Below are positions 867 through 41,980 of a DNA stretch of 64,000 nucleotides, piece after piece. Below the pieces are notes generated by a model. That model was not told the origin of the DNA, searched no databases, and saw only the letters and a program-made list of their open reading frames with translations. The DNA comes from Dictyostelium discoideum. Taxonomy: Eukaryota. The stretch is taken from positions 2,752,001 to 2,816,000 of the forward strand of contig CM000153.2 in the NCBI GenBank assembly GCA_000004695.1. The letters run 5' to 3'. A program made the position numbers and the translations under genes. The first letter of the stretch is position 1. Each line of letters begins with the position of its first letter.

Positions 867-3644
867 ATGATAAAAGTATTTAAAGATTTAAAATTTTTAA
901 TTTTAATAACCATAATATTATTAAATTTAAAAAGTATAAATTGTAAAATTATTTATGGAGATTCAGTATCATTTGAAAGAGTATTATCACCACAACTTGG
1001 TAAGAATATTACGTTGCCATGGGGTAAAGATAAGGTAATTCATTTGTGTAATCCACATGGAGAAGAATCTATACCAGTTTTAGTTTCAAACAATATACCA
1101 TTGGGTAAACTTGCTTCAAATGATGAAAATTTCTTGGCAATTTTTGGAAACCAATCATTTGCTAGATTGTTGGCTCATTTTAATTGTAAGAAAACAGAGG
1201 AAACTTGTATTAGATTACGTACTGATTTGCCAGTATTTACAAGTTGTCTTTTAATTGGTTCAGTTGATGGGTTTGATCATGTTACTTTCAATTCATCGTT
1301 GAGTGGTGTACCAACCAATATGAATTCATGGAATGTGGATACCGTTGGTAAATTTTCAAATAATCTTACAAGTGCTGGTAGAATTATAGTAAAGAATGAT
1401 AATAATCAAATTTCATTGGGTTGCTTTGAAGAAGGTGATAAAAACAATTTGAACTATATTTTAATGCATCCAAATAATCCAATTGATACCATTGATATAT
1501 GTTATAAATCATTTAATGAAGAATCAGAGTATGTTTTATATGGCCTAGTGGAATGTGGTGATACTTCAAAATCTTCATTCTCTATTAGTGGCTATGTTTT
1601 CTTTGATAAATATTATAGTAGTTCGCGAATTAATAATCCACCTGTTGCTGGTCAAATTGTATATATTCAACAAAAAAATGGTGTGGTTTATGATTTAGAT
1701 GGTAAACGTGTAAATCAAACAATTACAGATGCAAGAGGTTTCTATTATTTTAATAATATTCCAGGTGGTGATTATCAAGTTTACATTACACCAAGTGATC
1801 CAGATACACTATATAGTCCTGATGTTGATTCAAATTTACAAGATCCATATACAAACAAAGCAACCAATGGTTCAATTGAAACCTATATCTATATCAATGG
1901 AAGTGGTGTTGTACCAGTTAGTAAAACCAATTTCGATGATATTAAATTAACATCGGTTTATGTTATTCGTGAAATGAATATTGGTATCTTACCAAAGAAT
2001 ATTTCAATGGAAGGTTTGGTTTTCATTGATTATAATGCCAATGGTCAAATGGATACTGCCGTTACCAATACCTCTGCTCAAGATAAACCATACTCTGGTG
2101 TAAGAGTACAATTACTAGATGAAAATAGAGTTGTAAGAGATGTTATCACTGGTGATGATGGTATTTTCAGTTTTCCAGATGTTCCATATGTCTCAACTGG
2201 ATATATTGCAGTGATTTACACACCAAGTGGTAATGTAATGACAAATTATCCATTCCCACCATCACCATTGGCTGGTGAAATTATAAACTTGGAGATTGTA
2301 CCAAATAATATATTATTGGTCGGTTTAATTAATAATGAAAACTATTGTCAAGATTCACCATTGATGGCAATTATTTGTTATGCAAATCAAGGTTATAATG
2401 AATCACATGCTGATGATCCAGTTTTAATTACATTCCCATCCAATGCAAATAAACATCTCTATAATATGCCACATGGTACAGTTCAACATATTGCCACACA
2501 TAAAGAAATTGGTTCAGTTTATGGTGTTGGTGTTGATAGAGTGAATGGTGATATTTATACAAGTGCATTTATGAAATACTATTCTGGATTTGGACCAAGT
2601 GGAACAGGTGCAATTTATAAATCTACAACTAAAAACAATGATTATCAAACTTCATTATATTTTGATTTGAATAAAGCAATGAATCAAGAGGATTATTGTG
2701 GTACAGACTCACATATTTATCCAATGGATAATTATGATGGAGGTGTTGAAAAGGTTGGAAAGATTGCATTTGGTGATTTAGATATTCACAATGGTTCACT
2801 CTATACCATTGCATTGGCAACCAAAGAGTTGTTAAGAGTTTCAATTTCAGATCCAAGAGATTTCCAACTTTATAATATCTATAATCCATGTATTGAAGAA
2901 CCAGATGATTGGCGTCCATTTGCATTGGGATTACGTCATGGTAATATAATTATTGGTGGTGTTTGTTCTAAAGAATCTGATTCAACCAATATACCAGTTG
3001 GTTATATTATGGAAATGAGTGGTAATATTTTATTAACTGTTCCAATGGATTTCCCAAGAGGTTGTAAATCATTTGGTGGTTCATTCTGTATTCCAGGTGA
3101 ATATTCAGCTTGGTCAAGTGTTTATTTCGAATCACAACCTTGGATTTCAGATTTAACAATGGATGGTGAAGATATGATAATTTCAATTCGTGATCGTGGT
3201 GGTGATTTAGATCGTGATGTTGGTACCTATGATATGTTAAGAGCTTGCTTTGATGGTGATCAATTAATACTTGAGAATAGTGGAATTTGTGGAGGTGTTC
3301 CTGGTGCTCATCTATTACCTTCTGGTTATTTCGGTACACCTGACGGTATCAATAGTGGTGAATATTACAATGATAATTTCTATTATCCAACTGATAATGA
3401 TGGTCATGATAATGTAGCTTCGACTTCTGGTGTTGTAATTCCAGGTTATCATACTCTCTTTGGTTCTTCATTAGATATCGATAGTGTTGGACAAGGTACT
3501 GTTAAAGTTTGGGATAATAAAAATGGTCTATTACTATATGGTATTGGTGTTTATCTTCAAAGTAATGAAAATCCAACAAATAATTTTGGTAAAGCAAATG
3601 GTTTAGGTGATATGGAACCAATTTGTTATAATTATATTAAATAA
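867..3644 (+). CDS. Secreted protein (925 aa) with an N-terminal signal peptide and two SdrD-B/Cna-B-type beta-sandwich repeats (colossin-like); C-terminal ~550 aa of unknown function
   Basis: Single long ORF from the track. The N-terminus MIKVFKDLKFLILITIILLNLKSINC is a hydrophobic signal-peptide-like start. Two segments match the SdrD B-like / Cna B pattern G.V..D.N.NG..D..E.G..GV.V.L...G....T.TD..G.Y.F: YVFFDKYYSS..AGQIVYIQQKNGVVYDLDGKRVNQTITDARGFYYFNNIPGGDYQVYITPSD and EGLVFIDYNANGQMD..SGVRVQLLDENRVVRDVITGDDGIFSFPDVPYVSTGYIAVIYTPSG. There are many N-glycosylation sequons. Codon usage is typical of a genuine Dictyostelium gene. Confidence 0.65.
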   Translation: MIKVFKDLKFLILITIILLNLKSINCKIIYGDSVSFERVLSPQLGKNITLPWGKDKVIHLCNPHGEESIPVLVSNNIPLGKLASNDENFLAIFGNQSFARLLAHFNCKKTEETCIRLRTDLPVFTSCLLIGSVDGFDHVTFNSSLSGVPTNMNSWNVDTVGKFSNNLTSAGRIIVKNDNNQISLGCFEEGDKNNLNYILMHPNNPIDTIDICYKSFNEESEYVLYGLVECGDTSKSSFSISGYVFFDKYYSSSRINNPPVAGQIVYIQQKNGVVYDLDGKRVNQTITDARGFYYFNNIPGGDYQVYITPSDPDTLYSPDVDSNLQDPYTNKATNGSIETYIYINGSGVVPVSKTNFDDIKLTSVYVIREMNIGILPKNISMEGLVFIDYNANGQMDTAVTNTSAQDKPYSGVRVQLLDENRVVRDVITGDDGIFSFPDVPYVSTGYIAVIYTPSGNVMTNYPFPPSPLAGEIINLEIVPNNILLVGLINNENYCQDSPLMAIICYANQGYNESHADDPVLITFPSNANKHLYNMPHGTVQHIATHKEIGSVYGVGVDRVNGDIYTSAFMKYYSGFGPSGTGAIYKSTTKNNDYQTSLYFDLNKAMNQEDYCGTDSHIYPMDNYDGGVEKVGKIAFGDLDIHNGSLYTIALATKELLRVSISDPRDFQLYNIYNPCIEEPDDWRPFALGLRHGNIIIGGVCSKESDSTNIPVGYIMEMSGNILLTVPMDFPRGCKSFGGSFCIPGEYSAWSSVYFESQPWISDLTMDGEDMIISIRDRGGDLDRDVGTYDMLRACFDGDQLILENSGICGGVPGAHLLPSGYFGTPDGINSGEYYNDNFYYPTDNDGHDNVASTSGVVIPGYHTLFGSSLDIDSVGQGTVKVWDNKNGLLLYGIGVYLQSNENPTNNFGKANGLGDMEPICYNYIK

Positions 3645-6635: not shown

Positions 6636-9135
<2,500 letters not shown>

Positions 9136-10808
9136 TAACTTTGTTTTTTTTTTTTTATTTATTTTTTTTGATTTATTTATTTTTTTTTTAATAAAAATAA
9201 ATTATTTAATTTTTAAATCTTTTTTTTTTTTTTTTATTCTTCAATTTTCTTTTTTTTTTTTTTTTTTTAAATTATCAAACAAATAAATAAATAATTTACA
9301 AGATTTCAATTTAATAATTATTTAAGTAATTTTTTTTTATTTTTCCTTTTTTTTTTATTTTCCATCATTTATAATTATTATTACTTTATTTTTATTTATT
9401 ACAATTGACGAAATCCAATAATTATTGAGCAAAATTAATTAACTTTACTAGATTGTAAATATATCACAAATTATATTTTATCTTTTTAATTAATTTTATA
9501 AAATATTTATTAATATCAATTTAGTAATATTGGAATTGGCTGGAAATATTTGATTATATTTTTATAAAATATTTCACTACAACTTTAAAAAATATTAACT
9601 AATGCAAATTAATTATATTTTTATTAATATTTGTTTTTGTGAAATTTAAAAAAAAAAAAAAAATTTTAATCTTTATTTATTCCAATTAGTATTTGTTTGT
9701 GAATATTTATATATTGGGTTATCAAAGGTATTATTTTAAAATTAGAGATATTTATTTAAAAATTGATTAAACTAAATATAATAATTTATTTAAAAAAAAA
9801 CTTGAAAATAATTAATTTTAAATTTAATTGAAAATGGTATAAATTTCATTAAAATAGTGTCCATATAAAACATTTAATGTTGTATGGTCAGGTATAGATC
9901 ATTTTATTAAGGGACAGGGACATTGGATTACTGATAAAGTTGGAAAGACAGGCCGAATATTTAACTTAAAAAAGAAATGATGAAAGGTGAAAGACAACAT
10001 GCCATTCAACAAAAGTCTATAAACTGGTCATGTAAAAAAAGTCTTTATAAGATGCCCAATTACTTTCAAAACTATCCTATTATGATCTCAAAAATTGAAT
10101 TTTATTAACATGTCAAGATGTAAGAATTTCACAAGTTAAATTACAATTAACCAACCAATTAATGGCTTAGATGCATCTTCTTTAAGTGAGGTTGATCTTC
10201 CCAACCTGAATTTAGTGAAAATGAAAGTACCCAGATTACTCGTCTATTTTTTAAAAACATATGAAAATGCTTCAAATCACAAAGCCAAAATATTGTAATT
10301 AAAGTGGGTGTAATAGAAATGGTAATAAATATGCATTGGTCAAGTCAAATTAGAAAAAATAATGTTTTGAGGAACTCCTCAACACAACTATTCAATAAAT
10401 CTTCTTGAGTTTTGTAAAACTCTCATTGTATATTTACATTATAGAAACTATTTCTTGAGGCTTTCACCTTTAAAGAATCTTCATTGGTGGTATTTAAAAT
10501 TTATACCGCTCAAATTACAAAATCAAATACATATATCAAATTTAATGATTTTTTTAAATACTCAAATAAAATAATTGTTTTATAATAAAAAAAACTTTAT
10601 TTTCAAAATTTAATTTTTTAATATAAATAAATCTATATCAATGTGTTTTTATAATTTTCATTTTAATTCAAAACCTTATTTATAAATTATTCTAAAAAAA
10701 AAAAAAATTAAAATCTCATAATGAAATTTTTAGCCTTTTTCAAAGATATAAAAAAAGTATTTTTAGAAATAAAAAAATAAATAAATAAATAATTAAATTT
10801 ATTTTTAA

Positions 10809-10840
<32 letters not shown>

Positions 10841-10876
10841 ATAAATAATTAAATTTATTTTTAATTTTTTTATATT

Positions 10877-12154
10877 TTATTTTCTTTTAAAAGTTGATGA
10901 AGATTTTTTAGAAGTTTTTGCAGAAGGTTTTGAAGGAGTTTTTGTAACTTTCTTTTTTTTATCATTTGGATCTTCTGGTTTTTTAATTACAGTTATAAAA
11001 GAGTCCATACGAGATTGAACACTTGTATTTTTAAATTTCTTTAATTTTTCAATACCTTGAGCGACTCTAACATCAGAGAAACCCATTTCTTCAACTAAAA
11101 ATTTATTTAAACCTTCAACATCTGGATCTTTCCATTGAAAAGGTGGTAATTGATCAGCTGGAATAACATTTGGATTTTTAAATAATTCTCTCACCTCTGG
11201 GTATGGGAAAAACTCTGGTAATGGGTATTTGGATTTATCTAAATGTTTGATTACCTCCTCCAATGATTTATGTTTTTGAATTAACTCAATTGCTCTCTTT
11301 GGACCAATACCTTTGATACTATCACAATAATCACAACCTAAAAGAATGGAAAGATCAATAAACTCATCTTGAGTTAACCCTAAACCCTCCAATACTGATT
11401 GTAATTCAAATTCTAGAATTGGCATTTTCTTTGCTTCTGAAAAGAAAAGACGTCTAAGTAGTACTGTTGAACCTAATGTCAAAGAATCCATATCCTCTGA
11501 CCCGGTTGCCCATGCTTTACCCTTCTTTACAATCTCTGCACATTGCGCTTCTGCCTCACATGGTGCCTTTACAATTGGTACACCCATTAATGTTAAAAGT
11601 TTTATACAATCTTCATTTTGTTTACGTGTAACTGTAATAACACGTTTTGCAAATTTCTGAACCTCTTCATTGGTACCAACCTCTGTTGCTTCCTTTAAAT
11701 TCTCTTTTGCTTCTTTTCTTCTTGCTTGTCTTTTTGCTAATTCACCACTCTTTAATACTGGTGCACTACCATCAAATACATAAATTGGTTTAATACCTCT
11801 TGAAATTAATTTAATTGTACGATAAAACATACCTTGTAAATGACTAAATAAAAAAAAAAATAAAAAAATAAAAAATTTTAATATTTTATTATTTTATTAT
11901 TTTATTAATTATTAATTATTAATTATTAATTATTAATTATTATTTATTTTTATTTTATTTTTTTACCTTGTAGTTTCACCAAGTTGATTTGTTAATGCCG
12001 AAGAAACATCAGCATTCATTGCAATAAGAAATTGATATAAACTTGTTGATGCATCAATTGCAATAATTCTACCAAAATAGTTTTTTAATATATTTGTTTT
12101 AATTGAAGTTGGTGCATTATCTTCAATTAAATCTGTTAATTTTTTAATTCCCAT
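10877..12154 (-). CDS. repG: Flap endonuclease 1 (FEN1), 2 exons: complement(join(10877..11843,11967..12154))
   Basis: Exon 1: [62 protein letters not shown]. After the splice: [40 protein letters not shown]...[20 protein letters not shown].... This is collinear with eukaryotic FEN1 (MGI.GL..LI.D.AP.....Y.GR..AIDASMS.YQFL, the XPG-N/XPG-I domains, and a basic C-terminal tail). The donor is AG|GTAAAA and the acceptor is TTTAG. The gene symbol repG (Dictyostelium FEN1) is given from memory and not verified. Confidence 0.9.
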
Positions 12155-14074: not shown

Positions 14075-14554
14075 ATGTCAGATAACGAAGCTTTAGATGT
14101 CGAAGACTACGCCCAAGCCGGTTCAGGTGCTTCATTAACCTTCCCAATTCAATGTTCAGCATTAAGAAAGAACGGTTTCGTCGTCATTAAAGGTTTCCCA
14201 TGTAAGATTGTTGATATGTCAACTTCCAAAACCGGTAAACACGGTCACGCCAAAGTTAACATCACTGCTATCGATATCTTCACTGGTAAGAAATACGAAG
14301 AAATTTGCCCATCAACTCACAACATTGATGTACCAAATGTCAGCAGAAAGGAATACACCGTTATGGATGTTCAAGATGGTTACTTATCACTCTTGGATGC
14401 TGGTGGTGAAGTCAAAGAAGATCTTGCCCTCCCAGAAGATGATATTGGTAAAGAAATTACCCAAATGTTAAAAGAAGGTAAAGAGCCATTAGTTTCAGTC
14501 ATCTCTGCTTTAGGTAAAGAAGGTGTCGTCTCTGTTAAAGTCAGCAACAATTAA
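14075..14554 (+). CDS. eif5a: Eukaryotic translation initiation factor 5A (eIF5A), single exon, 159 aa
   Basis: The hypusine-loop motif STSKTGKHGHAK is present, and the overall sequence is typical eIF5A (..FPCKIVDMSTSKTGKHGHAKVNITAIDIFTGKKYE..). Third codon positions are enriched in C/G, as expected for a highly expressed Dictyostelium gene. Confidence 0.95.
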   Translation: MSDNEALDVEDYAQAGSGASLTFPIQCSALRKNGFVVIKGFPCKIVDMSTSKTGKHGHAKVNITAIDIFTGKKYEEICPSTHNIDVPNVSRKEYTVMDVQDGYLSLLDAGGEVKEDLALPEDDIGKEITQMLKEGKEPLVSVISALGKEGVVSVKVSNN

Positions 14555-14982: not shown

Positions 14983-15626
14983 TATTTATTAATTATTAAT
15001 TATTATTAATTATTATTTTTTTTTACTATTATTATTAATTATTATTTAACTACTAATAATAAATAAATAATAAATAATAAATAATGACAGAAAAAAAAAT
15101 AATAAATAATAATAAATAATAATAAATAATAATAAATAATAAATAATAATAAATAATAATAAATAATAATAAATAATAATAAATAATAATAAATAATAAT
15201 AAATAATAATTATTTGATTAATTTATATATAAATTTGTAGTATTTTAAAATTCAATTGATGAGTATCTAATGAAATTAATAATGGTTTGTCATGTTTGTT
15301 TAATCTCTTAAGTTGAATTATTTTAATTAAACCTGAATGAAACACTATAAACTGAGATCATTTTTAATGTTGTTGTTGGTTGATACTATTATGTTTCTTT
15401 AATCATTGATTTTAAATTCTACTACTGTTATTATTAATTCCTATTTTTGCTGTTGTTATTCAATACAATTAAAACTTTAAAACCTAAAATATACTAAATA
15501 GATCTTTTTTTTTATATTTTTTTTTTAATGACCATCACTAAATTTTTTTAATTTTTTTAAAATTTCTAAAAATAAAAAATTTAAAAAACATCACTGACCA
15601 CAAAAAATTAAAAAAACATCTGACTA

Positions 15627-15634
15627 TCCCATAA
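15627..15634 (+). promoter_or_regulatory. DUSE-like element (ATCCCATAA) about 60 nt upstream of the candidate SRP RNA start, followed by a TATA-like TTATAAAG at 15683-15690
   Basis: The Dictyostelium upstream sequence element consensus [AT]CCCA[CT]AA normally lies about 60 nt upstream of ncRNA genes. An exact match is read here. Confidence 0.5.
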
Positions 15635-15690
15635 AAAAATTTCATCAATTAAAAAAATGATATAAATACTGATTCTTACCATTATAAAGT

Positions 15691-15975
15691 ATGCAGGATT
15701 GGGTAGCGGCAACCTGTAATCAAGCGATGCATTCGAGGCGAGGACGAGAGCATTGTTAGGACCTTTGGGACAAGCGACGCATACAGTTGATCCACACTAA
15801 CGTTGGTGTCGACATACTATCAGTCTCTAAGGATTGAAAGTAAGTTGATAATGACCAAGTCAAGGTCCAGGCTGGCAACAGAGCAGACAGAGCGAGGCAC
15901 ATCGATGGGTAGCGAGGAAAGTCGACTTAAAGTCGTCCAAAGGAAATAACAATGTAAACTCGAACAAACCTTTTT
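15691..15975 (+). ncRNA. Candidate signal recognition particle RNA (7SL/SRP RNA), about 285 nt, ending in a T14 run
   Basis: This is a GC-normal island in AT-rich DNA with no ORF. The 5' part GGGUAGCGGCAACCUGUAAUCAAGCGAUGCAUUCGAGGCGAGGACGAG resembles the SRP Alu domain (GCCUGUAAUCCCAGC...GGGAGGCNGAGG). The 3' part CAGGCUGGCAACAGAGCAGACAGAGCGAGGCAC resembles the helix-5 return strand of metazoan 7SL (CAGCCUGGGCAACAUAGCGAGACCCC). A Pol III-type T-run terminator sits at 15971-15984. The exact ends are uncertain. Confidence 0.55.
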
Positions 15976-15984
15976 TTTTTTTTT

Positions 15985-16174
15985 AAAACACCGTAGAGCA
16001 ACATACTCTAACCTAGTGAAGATATGATTAAATGAAAAAGAAGAGAACTATTATTATAGAATGATAGTTGAAAAATATGTGAGAATTTATAAAAAAGAGA
16101 GTAGTTTATAAATTAAAGAAATATTATGGAAAGAAAGTTGAAAAATAAAAATAAAATTTATAATATAAGTGGCC

Positions 16175-16205
<31 letters not shown>

Positions 16206-16390
16206 CCGTAGTGAAGATATGATATAAAGAAAATAAAATAATAAAAAAAAGAATAATAATACTTTAAGTACATTTTAAAAATTTTAAAAAAAATTAATTA
16301 AATTAGTATAAGATAGTAAAAAATGCTATAGCTAACCCATCAATCAAAAAAAAAAGAATATACTGTAACCTAACGATGATATATATGACC
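15985..16390 (+). repeat. Two tandem ~190-nt AT-rich units downstream of the SRP RNA gene. Each begins AAAACRCCGTAG..GTGAAGATATGAT and ends RCC plus a long T-run.
   Basis: Unit B is 15985..16199, starting aaaacaccgtagagcaacatactctaacctagtgaagatatgat and ending ggcc+T25. Unit C is 16200..16390, starting aaaacgccgtagtgaagatatgat and ending ..atactgtaacctaacgatgatatatatgacc+tttg. A shared ATACT-TAACCTA-GATGATAT module sits at the start of unit B and the end of unit C. Confidence 0.4.
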
Positions 16391-16539
16391 TTTGTTATTA
16401 TATTATTTTTACCCATCCCTTTTAAAAAAAAAAAAAAAAAAAATTTTAAGATAATTTTATTTATTTTTATTATTATTATTATATAATGGTATGATTATTT
16501 TTTTTTTTTTTTTTTAAAGTTTAATTTTATTGATTAATA

Positions 16540-16573
<34 letters not shown>

Positions 16574-16631
16574 TTTATTATAATTGATTGATAAAAATAA
16601 TATAACAAAAAAAATTGATTAATATATATAC

Positions 16632-16662
<31 letters not shown>

Positions 16663-17559
16663 TTTATTACAATTGATTGATAAAAATAATATAACAAAAA
16701 AAACTTTGAAAATTGCTTGTTGATTTTAATGTGACAATTTTATTTGATAGATAATAATTAAATAAAATAAAAAAAAAAAAAAAAAAAAATAAAAATTGGA
16801 TTAGACATGTGTTTGGAACTATTTGGATATTTTTAATTAAAGTTCTAAACACATGTTTTGAAATTAAAATTTAAAGTAAACATTTTTTTATCGGAATTAA
16901 AAAAAAATTAAAATTTTTTTTTTTTTATTTTTTTATTTTTTATTTTATTTTTTTTTTTTATTTTATACTTTTACATTTTTTTAAAAACAAATTTTTTTTT
17001 TTTTTATTTTTTTTATCTTATTATTGTAAATAGAATTAAGAAAATACATAAACTGAAAAATTTTAATAGTCACCCTTCCTCATCCTACTCCTCTATCACT
17101 ACCAGTTATTTATAAAATATAATAGTGAAAAGGATCATAAAGATTTATCAGTAAAATTAAGTGAGTAAAAATATAAATACAAATAAAAAAAAAATAATAA
17201 TAAATAATAATATTAATACAAATATAAATACAAATAAAAAAAAATAAAAAATAAAAAATAAAATATTAATAATATAATTTAATGAGTAAAGAAGAATACT
17301 TTAAACTGTATAGATTTAAATACCATTTGTCCAACACCATTAAATAGTTGAAATTACAAGTATTTTTTAGTTGAAAGGTCATATCTTGGGAGATTTTAAA
17401 ATTGGTGCTTATTTGGGTATGTACATTTATTATTTTTATTATTGTTATTATTATTATTATTTATATTATTATTATTATTATTATTATTATTAAAAATTAC
17501 ATTAAAAGCTAATAATCAATATTTTTTATTTAAAGTTTGCTGTATTGACCCATTAGTGG

Positions 17560-19208: not shown

Positions 19209-20127
19209 AAAAATGATATATATAAAATAGAATTAATAAAAGTTTTAGTAATAGATTATCAAAATTAAAATTTAAAACTTTTATATGATCCAATTGGTAA
19301 TAGTGATTTTGAATATTTTGGTATCATATTTACAAGTATTAATTATTTAAAGTCAAAATATTACTTTTTTTATCTTTTTTTGAAAAAGAAAATATAAAAA
19401 ATATTAAAAAACAGAACAAATATCTAAATTAATTTTTAAACTTATCATAAAACCCATAGTTATTATATTTTTATTAATAAAAATTTGGAAATGGGAAAAA
19501 AAAATAAAAAAAGTTGGCCAATGGATTTTTTAAAATGAATTGCCTGATAGTGATGATGTCGAGAAGAAGAGTGTTAATTATTTTTTTAGTGTTTTTAGAG
19601 TATTAAATTTTAAAATAAAGTATTATATTTAGTTTTTATAAATTTTTAAATAAATTAAAATAAAAATATCTCTATTTTTAAAATATTACCTCAATACATA
19701 TACTCAAAAAAATACTAATTGAAATAACAAAGATTAAAATGTTTTTTTTTTTTTTTATAAAAACAAATATAAATCAATAAAAATTATCATTAATGAATGA
19801 AAAAAACGATATTATAAAAATAAAATTTGATCAAAAAAATTTATTTACATTACAATTAGAAAATTAAATTTACATTTTTAATATTTTTTAAAGTTGTAAT
19901 GAAATATATTTATAAACAACAGGTTCCTATCAAGATCTAGGAATTCTACACTGTAGAATGAAAATTGAAAATTAAGAGTGAAAATTTAATTGCGAAGATC
20001 TAAATTGTTTAAATTGTTCACCAACACATAGAAAGTTCAATAGATTCACAAATAAACACTACAATGGGACACACTCACATCTAATCAAGATATCAAGTAT
20101 GTTCCAAAAAATAATAAAAAGAATATA

Positions 20128-23826: not shown

Positions 23827-24929
23827 TATTTTTTTGTTATTTAGTATCAGTTAGAGATTAATCTGAATTGAGTTGTAGTTGATTTTTTTTAAATTTCAAC
23901 TATCCGATGTATCTAACTTCATTGATTTTATACGCAGCCAAGTTTTCCCAACCTTTGTCATACTGACTCGACCTTTACATTTTCCGACCTTTCGGCAAGT
24001 TGATGAATTGGTTTCTTTGTCGTTTTTTAGTATGAGCTTAGACTATTTCTGTTACCTGACCATTACATTGTTTGTAATTTCCCCCCTAGAGATTTTCGCG
24101 TACTCAGACCTTCCCATATTATTCTCTCTTTATGATTTTAAAAATTTGTGAGAGATTCCTTTTTTTAATGATTGCCATTTGTTGAATATTACATTGGTTT
24201 CAAACCAATACCAAATAATCAAAATAAAATACCCCATTGACATTTGATTTTGTGATGACTTTTGTGGAAATTTTTCAAAAACGTAAAAAATTTTATGGGA
24301 ACAATCAATTTTTTTTTTTTTTTTTTACTAAAATAAAAAAAAATAAAAAAAATAAAAAAAATATTTTTTAAAAAAGTGTGGAGATGATTATGGTGAAGTT
24401 ATTTAACAGTTTTTATATTGGTTGGTGCAATGATAAGTGATTAAAAAGAATTTGGTAAAAAAGTTATTAATGAATCTTTTTTTTTCAAAATAAAAGAATA
24501 AAAAAAAAAAAAAAAAGAAATTAAATTTTTTTTGAATTGGAAAAAAAAGAAATTAAATAATTATTGAAATAATAAAAATAATAATAATAATAATAAAATT
24601 AAATAATAAAATTAATGTATATTTTTTTTTCCCTATTTAATCTTTGAAATATCAAATAAACAAACAAGTTTTTGTATATAAAATATCTATTTATCTATTG
24701 TTTTTATTATTTTCTTTTATTACCAAATCAATTTTATTTTTTTAATTTTTTTATTATTTTTTTATTTTACAAGATATAATTTTGAATCTATAAATAAATT
24801 AATTGTTTTAAAATTATTTTATAAATGTAAATTTGAAAAAAAAGAATTAAAAAGAGTTTTTGAAAAATGCCCAATTGATGAATTAAAATTTAAAATTAAA
24901 GATTTAAAAAATTCATGTATTTCAATTAT

Positions 24930-40175: not shown

Positions 40176-40239
40176 AAGGACAGTTGACGAAGTTTTTCTT
40201 TGAATGTAAGGAAATGTTAGATTTGCTGTAAGGTCAACT
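40176..40239 (-). ncRNA. Class I RNA gene (Dictyostelium Class I ncRNA, about 64 nt)
   Basis: The minus-strand transcript is AAGUUGACCUUACAGCAAAUCUAACAUUUCCUUACAUUCAAAGAAAAACUUCGUCAACUGUCCUUUU. The 5' GUUGAC pairs with the 3' GUCAAC, and the conserved 11-nt Class I motif CCUUACAGCAA follows the 5' stem strand directly. A short T-run lies at the 3' end. A DUSE-like ACCCAAAA sits about 90 nt upstream (plus 40327-40334, reverse-complemented). Confidence 0.65.
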
Positions 40240-41914: not shown

Positions 41915-41980
41915 AAGTTGACCTTACAGCAAATCTTACAATTTCATCCTAAGAAAAAATACAGTCAACTGTCTTTTTTT
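41915..41980 (+). ncRNA. Class I RNA gene
   Basis: AAGUUGACCUUACAGCAAAUCUUACAAUUUCAUCCUAAGAAAAAAUACAGUCAACUGUCUUUUUUU. The terminal stem is perfect (GUUGAC/GUCAAC), the conserved motif CCUUACAGCAA is exact, and a T7 terminator follows. Confidence 0.65.

Follow-up and report, generated by a model that had tools for sequence, protein, structure and literature searches.

The SRP (7SL) RNA of Dictyostelium forms a family with its own Rfam model (RF01570, clan CL00003 SRP); the gene, its DUSE and its terminator have already been described for Dictyostelium, and work on D. discoideum has included northern blots probed for SRP RNA (PMC2175303). The DUSE (Dictyostelium upstream sequence element), [AT]CCCA[AT]AA, is found upstream of Dictyostelium ncRNA genes at a distance of about 60-63 bp (PMC3188802, PMC7919456), and Pol II genes as well as Pol III genes use it (PMC7919456). 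Genes that depend on it include those of the spliceosomal snRNAs and the Class I RNAs, many of the latter followed by a T-run. No paper was found that joins SRP RNA with the DUSE in Dictyostelium. Three other described systems bear on the sequence downstream of such a gene: the 7SL-derived SINEs of mammals (Alu, B1), the Dictyostelium retroelements, which target the vicinity of Pol III-transcribed tRNA genes (PMC5006619), and template switching of the FoSTeS/MMBIR type, in which a short duplicated segment flanks inserted nearby sequence and the junctions lie in homopolymer or microhomology tracts.

The locus studied here lies in a 64-kb window, the term being used for the whole stretch of D. 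discoideum DNA that was analysed. A sequence-only reading of it had proposed an SRP RNA gene followed by two tandem ~190-nt units that might be SINE-like elements or abortive duplications of the SRP locus. The gene was recovered as proposed, and the units were not. We consider it likely that the locus consists of the known SRP gene and a downstream local duplication-plus-insertion, the ~400 nt of flank being without function and representing neither SINEs nor SRP pseudogenes. The comparisons drew on eight orthologous SRP loci, that of the window and those of the seven next-closest related assemblies. When the flank was compared by blastn at permissive settings (word size 7, no dust filter), homopolymer and AT-rich matches swamped the output and made it unusable; the comparisons of flanks given here come from targeted alignments with dinucleotide-shuffle statistics.

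The SRP RNA gene and its promoter

The gene and the elements around it are as follows, the TATA-like box and the terminator being read from the sequence.

15627..15634, + strand: DUSE, TCCCATAA, first base at -64 (RNA start, 15691)
15661..15668, + strand: TATA-like box, TATAAATA, -30 to -23
15691..15970, + strand: SRP (7SL) RNA gene, from RF01570, fold, covariation and eIF5A synteny
15971..15984, + strand: T14 run, Pol III-type terminator

The Rfam Dictyostelium_SRP model RF01570 matched 15691-15968 (+) over its full length (model positions 1-283) with 320 bits, well above the gathering score of 90 (E 6e-95), and by homology 15691-15970 is the already-known D. discoideum SRP (7SL) RNA gene, as the earlier reading had supposed. 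Its architecture is that of the described RNA, with Alu-like hairpins at the 5' end, a long helix in the centre and two internal hairpins, and shows no noteworthy difference; synteny and covariation are seen in related species. Seven related Dictyostelium assemblies have the gene ~1 kb downstream of eIF5A, and the eIF5A protein of the window is identical to the AX4 protein; the SRP gene itself, of AX4 type, differs at 7 positions from those of the two nearest sister-lineage assemblies. The description of the gene as a GC-normal, ORF-free island also held, with a GC content of 0.42-0.50 against 0.16-0.19 in the flanks, and no ORF of at least 60 aa in the island. Folding of the single sequence gave an MFE z-score of -4.2, while the alignment fold of the eight orthologues contained 78 consensus pairs, five of them with compensatory (both-sided) changes and many with one-sided G-U changes. 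One structural detail needed correction: CAGGCUGGCAACAGAGCAGACAGAGCGAGGCAC, in the 3' part of the island, had been taken for the 3' strand of helix 5, but the Rfam consensus structure places it in a separate internal hairpin with a GCAA loop at its tip, of which it forms the 3' strand and the distal part; this hairpin would correspond to the helix-8-like hairpin of the S domain. An nhmmer search with the eight-species SRP profile found nothing in the window besides the gene itself.

The DUSE-like element, previously placed at about -60, proved to have a fixed position: ATCCCATAA was found at 15626-15634 and contains the DUSE core TCCCATAA, and the same octamer occurs at -63/-64 in 8/8 orthologous loci, surrounded by diverged sequence. 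By number alone the motif does not stand out, with 23 occurrences in the window against 22.7 expected, so that the argument for the DUSE is one of position and conservation. The TATA-like box, present in D. discoideum-complex loci as GATATAAATACT or GATACAAATACT and less conserved in D. citrinum and D. dimigraforme, may serve as a promoter element. The expected T14 terminator was likewise found, and a T-run lies 3' of the gene in all eight orthologues, interrupted in two of them (L005 and L006); uninterrupted runs directly after the gene range from T6 to T57. Since the DUSE serves Pol II as well as Pol III genes, Pol III is the presumed polymerase here. In its distance from the RNA start the SRP DUSE agrees with the ~60-63 nt published for DUSE-dependent ncRNA genes, and the T-run agrees with that of many Class I genes. 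The Class I genes within the window (40181-40238 and 41917-41971) have their DUSE at -95/-96 with a TGTG box in between, whereas the SRP gene combines a simple -64 spacing with a TATA-like box.

Structure of the 3' flank

The sequence downstream of the terminator falls into four segments, in which 'head' denotes the ~54 nt that follow a T-run.

15985..16038, + strand: first copy of the head, native sequence directly 3' of the SRP gene (AAAACACCGTAG, 20 nt, then TGAAGATATGAT...GAAAA)
16039..16174, + strand: segment X, a purine-rich insert of 136 nt ending GTGGCC, about two tandem ~70-nt copies
16175..16233, + strand: second T-run (T25) and head (AAAACGCCGTAG, a 20-nt deletion, then TGAAGATATGATATAAAGAAAA)
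16234..16392, + strand: ancestral 3' flank, ordinary AT-rich intergenic DNA orthologous to the single-copy flanks of relatives

Similarity between the two supposed units was confined to the T-run and head. Allowing for the 20-nt indel, 15971-16038 aligned with 16175-16233 at z=8.0 (0/500 shuffles); the two stretches of T14 plus 12 nt were 96% identical (D11) and the following 25 nt 88% (D13). The heads differ by ~11% (~89% identity) plus the one indel, which is bordered by CCGTAG / CCTAG. The shared starts that had been noted are real in so far as AAAACRCCGTAG occurs twice in the window, at 15985 and 16200 (0.10 expected), and GTGAAGATATGAT at 16016 and 16211, with an unrelated copy at 3166, but the similarity stops after the head. 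Across 176 kb, comprising the 64-kb window and 112 kb of related loci, nhmmer matches to the head (E 6e-13 to 4e-6) were found only directly 3' of SRP copies. The head is single-copy and at the same position in L002 (83%) and L007 (87%), and it follows both SRP copies in L009, at 77% or in fragmentary form. A comparable match was absent at E<=10 in L005, D. citrinum and D. dimigraforme, where the SRP genes and their DUSE are intact. The best non-head match of the head profile, a possible third copy at 16356-16382, was not significant (E 0.48).

The body of the first unit is segment X. Its internal repeat (16052-16077 and 16122-16147) is 88% identical, its halves, U1a and U1b, align at z=3.3, and both halves match one single-copy segment of L009 at ~9170-9245 (z=7.8 and 7.7, 0/1000 shuffles), located ~1.8 kb downstream of the SRP gene in that sister species. 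The right-hand part of the L009 segment corresponds positionally to ~19950-20050 of the window; as the match of that interval to X is weak (z about 3) and one unrelated window tile scored equally high, this presumed AX4 source stays a candidate. X resembles neither the body of unit 2 (z=-0.6) nor the SRP gene (z=0.7 to 1.5). In L007 the sequence after the head resembles the start of X (28/34 identical, low-complexity), and the rearrangement may thus predate the strain of the window and have been resolved differently in other lineages.

Judged by its relatives, the second unit is a second copy of the head, with the 20-nt deletion, followed by the ancestral flank, which is single-copy in those relatives. 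Its body is 37/39 identical at the junction to the L002 flank after the head (z=5.0), and it also aligns with the flanks of L005 (z=6.2) and L009 (z=3.1).

Comparison of the units with each other gave values no better than shuffles for the bodies (z=-0.6), body plus tail (z=0.4) and last 45 nt (z=-0.4), and Tandem Repeats Finder reported no ~200-nt period. Rfam at E<=10 gave no match in 15985-16390, ARAGORN found no tRNA there, and shuffle tests of the SRP gene against the units showed no significant similarity (z=-0.7 to 1.5). No DUSE lies between 15635 and 20555, hence none upstream of the units, and the fold z-scores (unit 1 -1.7, unit 2 +1.4) indicate no RNA-like fold. Beyond the copies directly 3' of SRP genes, no extra unit copies were present in the window or in the 112 kb of related loci. 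The tail of unit 2 (ATACTGTAACCTAACGATGA) and the 20-nt head segment resemble the SRP 3' end (ACAATGTAAACTCGAAC) by eye, a likeness that was rejected (z=-0.2 to 0.7, no nhmmer match). Of the long T-runs said to follow RCC at the end of each unit, the first exists, as unit 1 ends in GGCC and T25 (16175-16199), but unit 2 ends in GACC followed by TTTGTTATTATATTATTTTT, without a long T-run. CC precedes 7 of the 178 runs of T>=10 on this strand (~4%), p about 0.04, which makes the shared RCC-Tn ending weak evidence. The head thus appears to have been duplicated around an inserted scrap of intergenic sequence, rather than within two copies of one unit, and the proposal of tandem units is mostly wrong.

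Farther downstream, an 89-bp tandem duplication, 97% identical and with T21 runs, at 16537-16703 provides a precedent for slippage at T-runs.

Partial copies at related loci

Several relatives carry partial copies of the gene or its 3' end. In L009 a 5'-truncated SRP copy at 8369-8576 (hmm 80-286, E 3.5e-58) is inverted and has its own T-run and head. The fold-back, inverted partial copies in relatives lie at the same head/flank junction, as with the 64-nt fold-back copy of the SRP 3' end at L009 7431-7494 (E 3e-7). In the D. citrinum loci, fragments of the SRP 3' end with a T-run are found downstream of the gene (L006 7747-7791, E 1e-3; L001, E 0.09).

Origin of the duplicated flank

The arrangement probably arose at the T-runs during replication, by a switch of template or by slippage. 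Having copied the T-run and head that lie 3' of the gene, a fork would have jumped by way of short A/G microhomology to another intergenic segment, copied that segment twice to give the 136 nt of X, and returned to the T-run, so that T-run and head were re-copied. The breakpoints lie within low-complexity A/T/G-rich sequence, and the mechanism is read from the final structure alone. As in FoSTeS/MMBIR-type events, a short duplicated segment flanks inserted sequence and the junctions lie in homopolymer or microhomology tracts; the presence of X about twice and the inverted fold-back copies of relatives also follow that pattern, the assignment being made on structure; neither intermediate alleles nor an exact donor were found in this genome. 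We expect the units to be neither transcribed in their own right nor functional.

A different history would be the tandem duplication of a whole unit, in which unequal exchange between ACC-TTT microhomologies doubled a ~205-215-nt block of T-run, head, body and RCC tail in a single event, and the first of the two bodies later diverged or was overwritten. The near-equal lengths of 15971-16185 (215 nt) and 16186-16389 (204 nt) would agree with this, as would the similar heads and the RCC, followed by T-rich sequence, that closes the SRP gene and each unit. The difference between the two heads, indel included, is moreover close to the divergence of the head between strains (13-17%), which implies a duplication old enough for some decay. 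Uniform neutral decay cannot, however, account both for heads that are ~89% identical and for bodies and tails that are shuffle-like; the body of unit 1 has another homologue, in L009, and the start of the unit 2 body is still nearly identical to L002. We regard such a duplication as unlikely.

Alternatively, a duplicated SRP gene might have lost its body by deletion or replacement and left GGCC as its last bases, T25 as its terminator and head 2 as its flank. The truncated L009 copy with its T-run and head, and the D. citrinum fragments, would agree with this, and because CC stands before so few T-runs, GGCC-T25 could be what is left of an SRP 3' end that was copied. Against it, the SRP 3' end and the whole SRP gene gave only z=0.7 and z=1.5 with unit 1, the SRP profile had no nhmmer match before T25 at E<=10, and the sequence up to GGCC is X, homologous to a non-SRP segment. 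A remnant of this kind is quite improbable, and of the suggested abortive duplication of the SRP locus what stands is the re-copying of the terminator T-run with ~54 nt of flank; no SRP RNA sequence was copied here.

A function of the head as a downstream element of the gene, for example in terminating transcription, forming the 3' end or recycling the polymerase, with selection maintaining its duplication, seems very improbable. The head does accompany both SRP copies of L009 and is kept in AX4, L002 and L007, with AAAACRCCGTAG and TGAAGATATGAT intact in both AX4 copies, but its identity drops with distance as neutral DNA does, from the closest strains to L009, it has no match in L005, D. citrinum or D. 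dimigraforme at E<=10, and 20 nt are missing from head 2.

SINE-like or Pol III-derived mobile units, each independently transcribed or retroposed and ending in a terminator, are barely conceivable: unit 1 does end in T25 and start right after a Pol III-type terminator, and Dictyostelium retroelements do target the neighbourhood of tRNA genes (PMC5006619), but the units have no tRNA-, 7SL- or 5S-derived sequence, no internal promoter, no upstream DUSE, no RNA-like structure and no further copies in the 176 kb save directly 3' of SRP copies, and unit 2 lacks a T-run and is the ancestral single-copy flank. Their likeness to the 7SL-derived SINEs lies in the neighbourhood of a 7SL gene and in one T-run end; unlike those SINEs they show no dispersal in the 176 kb and have no 7SL-derived sequence, short target-site duplications or A-rich tail, and unit 2 represents the ancestral flank. 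No paper was found describing SRP-targeted retroelements, and PMC5006619 makes no mention of SRP or 7SL.

Significance of the locus

If, as seems likely, the AX4 flank arose by local duplication-plus-insertion, the downstream 'units' are a neutral intergenic rearrangement and the locus is an ordinary one. It may serve as a worked example of AT-rich DNA that can be mistaken for tandem units or SINEs because of common starts and RCC-Tn ends. Several lineages have partial re-copies in which the terminator T-run is included: AX4, where T-run and head are duplicated around the insert, L009 and D. citrinum. It is possible, if rather doubtful, that the SRP 3' flank acts as a hotspot where rearrangement has recurred within the D. 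discoideum / D. citrinum clade, and the cause could be a replication fork that stalls at a Pol III-type gene under heavy transcription, or at the gene's long T-run, and then switches template. The independent re-copies of the SRP 3' end and terminator in sister species would offer a possible case study of rearrangement near a heavily transcribed small-RNA gene, and such a hotspot, if true, would provide natural material for comparative work on the conflict of transcription with replication in a genome extremely rich in A and T.

The SRP RNA gene and its conservation

[quoted passage not shown] A covariance-model scan matched Dictyostelium_SRP (RF01570) over model positions 1-283, with a score of 320 bits (gathering score 90, E 6e-95). 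The GC content of the interval was 0.42-0.50 compared with 0.16-0.19 in its flanks, no ORF of at least 60 aa was present, and folding was far above that of shuffled sequence (z=-4.2). In the Rfam consensus, the segment previously placed in the 3' strand of helix 5 belongs instead to an independent internal hairpin capped with a GCAA loop, of which it forms the distal part and the 3' strand; this hairpin is probably helix-8-like. The gene and its promoter architecture are already known.

Features at the SRP locus (window positions)
10877-12154: FEN1, upstream of the eIF5A ORF
14075-14554: eIF5A ORF, 100% identity to AX4 eIF5A
15627-15634: DUSE core TCCCATAA, beginning at -64 from the RNA start
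15661-15668: TATA-like box TATAAATA
15691-15968 (+): SRP RNA gene
15971-15984: T14 run, directly 3' of the SRP gene

The published DUSE, [AT]CCCA[AT]AA, lies about 60-63 nt 5' of Dictyostelium ncRNA genes and is associated with Pol II as well as Pol III genes (PMC3188802; PMC7919456). Because the bare motif was not enriched in the window (23 observed, 22.7 expected), the weight of this evidence lies in position and conservation: TCCCATAA occurred at -63 or -64 in all eight SRP loci (window included), and a T-run followed the gene in 8/8.

Nine related assemblies were compared at their eIF5A loci. In seven of these (two further 'D. discoideum', two D. cf. discoideum, two D. citrinum, and D. dimigraforme) eIF5A was followed after ~1 kb by an SRP gene in the same orientation, scoring 245 to 312 bits; none was found in the 6 kb covered for D. 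firmibasis or D. purpureum. Alignment of the eight SRP RNAs gave 78 consensus pairs, five with compensatory changes. By eIF5A and SRP differences, the 'D. discoideum' loci L002 and L007 are sisters, with the window's strain (AX4 or one nearly identical, called AX4 below) as outgroup to both.

Other RNA genes and conserved elements

Several further RNA genes were observed. Both sister assemblies carry a U3 snoRNA gene between FEN1 and eIF5A (L002:4509-4717 (-), L007:4488-4696 (-)), a match absent from the corresponding region of the window, which is roughly 1 kb shorter. In D. citrinum, tRNA genes (L001:8825-8896, 9952-10023; L006:9477-9548, 10775-10846) follow the SRP gene within a few kb, and in D. 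firmibasis, with no SRP gene found within 6 kb, tRNA genes (L003:7364-7435, 8521-8592) take the corresponding place 3' of eIF5A. The window contains a nuclear RNase P RNA gene at 23846-24136 (-) (Rfam 62.6 bits, P3 region missing from the alignment). Relative to the 5' end called by Rfam, its nearest DUSE (TCCCATAA, 24293-24300 (-)) is at -157 to -164, not at about -60; the gene may start some 100 nt 5' of that point, or have an atypical promoter spacing. Two Class I RNA genes, at 40181-40238 (-) and 41917-41971 (+), each have a DUSE-like octamer, positioned at -95/-96, and an AAATGTG near -37, the known D. discoideum arrangement of DUSE and TGTG-box (PMC7919456).

Four relatives share a ~45-nt conserved element (ACAAACTTGTAAAATGCT..GGATCAAAAGATTTCACCATGGT) in the interval from the SRP gene to the conserved anchor CTTTGAAAATTGCTTGTTGATTTTAATGTGA. 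It was not found in the window, the best match having 3 mismatches, lying elsewhere, and being at chance level. In L009, from D. cf. discoideum, a ~12-bp inverted repeat flanks it.

Positions of the ~45-nt element
L002:~7950-8000
L007:~8350-8400
L005:~8415-8465
L009:~7705-7755

Extent of the duplication downstream of the SRP gene

Two tandem units with common starts and endings had been described at 15985-16199 and 16200-16390. The shared start stood: the 64 kb contain exactly two occurrences of AAAACRCCGTAG, at 15985 and 16200 (0.1 expected), each with GTGAAGATATGAT downstream, and the heads (the ~54 nt directly 3' of the T-run) matched each other at z=8.0 against dinucleotide shuffles. Similarity takes in the preceding T-run (T14 + 12 nt, 96% identity) and, beyond a 20-nt indel with CCGTAG/CCTAG at its edges, resumes for about 25 nt more at 88%. 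A repeat of the whole unit did not hold, as bodies and tails compared like shuffles (body, z=-0.6; body plus tail, z=0.4; last 45 nt, z=-0.4), and Tandem Repeats Finder reported no ~200-nt period. Nor does the second unit end in a long T-run, its actual end being GACC-TTTGTTATTATATTATTTTT. A common RCC-Tn ending is weak in any case, at a chance level of roughly 0.04, since 'CC' precedes 7/178 long T-runs on this strand.

SINE-like tandem units were not supported. Searched with an nhmmer profile built from all eight SRP genes, the window gave no match beyond the gene, SRP compared with either unit gave z between -0.7 and 1.5 (shuffles), and 15985-16390 had no Rfam match at E<=10 and none from ARAGORN. 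There was no DUSE between 15635 and 20555, and neither unit folded better than its shuffles (z=-1.7 and +1.4). No dispersed copies were found: across the window and nine loci (176 kb), significant matches to a profile built from every head copy lay only immediately 3' of SRP copies (AX4, L002, L007, and both SRP copies of L009).

Probable origin of the rearranged flank

The L002 SRP T-run leads into one head, including the 20-nt segment, and then into sequence with 37/39 identity to the beginning of the unit 2 body in AX4. This body is also significantly similar to the single-copy flanks of three relatives (L002, z=5.0; L005, z=6.2; L009, z=3.1), so that unit 2 is the ancestral 3' flank. None of these flanks matches the unit 1 body (X, 16039-16174). 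X is built from about two tandem copies of ~70 nt (88% identity between 16052-16077 and 16122-16147, z=3.3), and both halves match a single segment at L009 ~9170-9245 (z=7.8 and 7.7, 0/1000 shuffles). The right-hand part of that segment is the positional counterpart of window ~19950-20050, where the AX4 sequence resembles X weakly (z about 3). The intergenic segment 19950-20050 is about 77% conserved between AX4 and D. cf. discoideum (L009:9206-9311), and in L009 its left end runs on into X-homologous sequence. The resulting layout is SRP, T14-head 1, X, GGCC-T25-head 2 (with a 20-nt deletion), and ancestral flank.

Replication slippage or template switching most likely produced this layout. 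The signature of such events is a short duplicated segment around inserted, internally re-copied nearby DNA; the junctions here fall in a homopolymer (T-run) and in A/G-rich microhomology (GAAAA/AAAGAAGAGA). Tandem duplication of a whole unit ranks lower, since uniform decay cannot give ~89% identical heads with random bodies, and X has a distinct homologue of its own. Loss of a second SRP copy also ranks lower because there is no SRP similarity 5' of T25. In the same intergenic region, an 89-bp tandem duplication at 16537-16703 (1.9 copies, 97% identical, with a T21 run and (AT)n tract per copy) is a recent slippage event.

Divergence between heads 1 and 2 is about 11%, with one indel in addition, and so is similar to the 13-17% seen for the head between strains. 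In L007 the head is followed by sequence like the start of X (28/34 identical, low-complexity) and then by an (ATT)n array. We lean towards an event that predates the split of AX4 from L002 and L007, resolved differently in each lineage; one specific to the AX4 lineage is possible. The duplication-insertion in the SRP 3' flank is probably neutral.

Partial SRP copies in relatives

The suggestion that the terminator module had been re-copied is true of the clade, as partial SRP copies occur in relatives, but no SRP sequence was copied in the window. L009 carries a 5'-truncated, inverted second SRP copy at 8369-8576 (-) (nhmmer hmm 80-286, E 3.5e-58; Rfam 141 bits), with no DUSE visible by eye upstream. 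This copy has its own T-run and head (L009:8297-8347 (-)) and was therefore copied as DNA, not via RNA; it resembles a segmental duplication at the DNA level which yielded a pseudogene. In L009 the SRP 3' end also recurs, inverted, as a 64-nt copy (7431-7494 (-), E 3e-7) about 70 nt downstream of the gene. Together with the 3' end of the gene itself, this copy makes up a fold-back repeat, and its position is exactly the boundary of head and ancestral flank, the junction that holds X in AX4. Both D. citrinum assemblies have same-strand fragments of SRP 3' end and T-run 350-470 nt downstream of the gene (L006:7747-7791 (+), E 1e-3; L001:7818-7849 (+), E 0.09, weak). A very weak match to such a fragment was also seen directly after the terminator in D. 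dimigraforme (L004:7601-7621 (+), E 9). A local rearrangement hotspot at the SRP gene is supported, if not proven.
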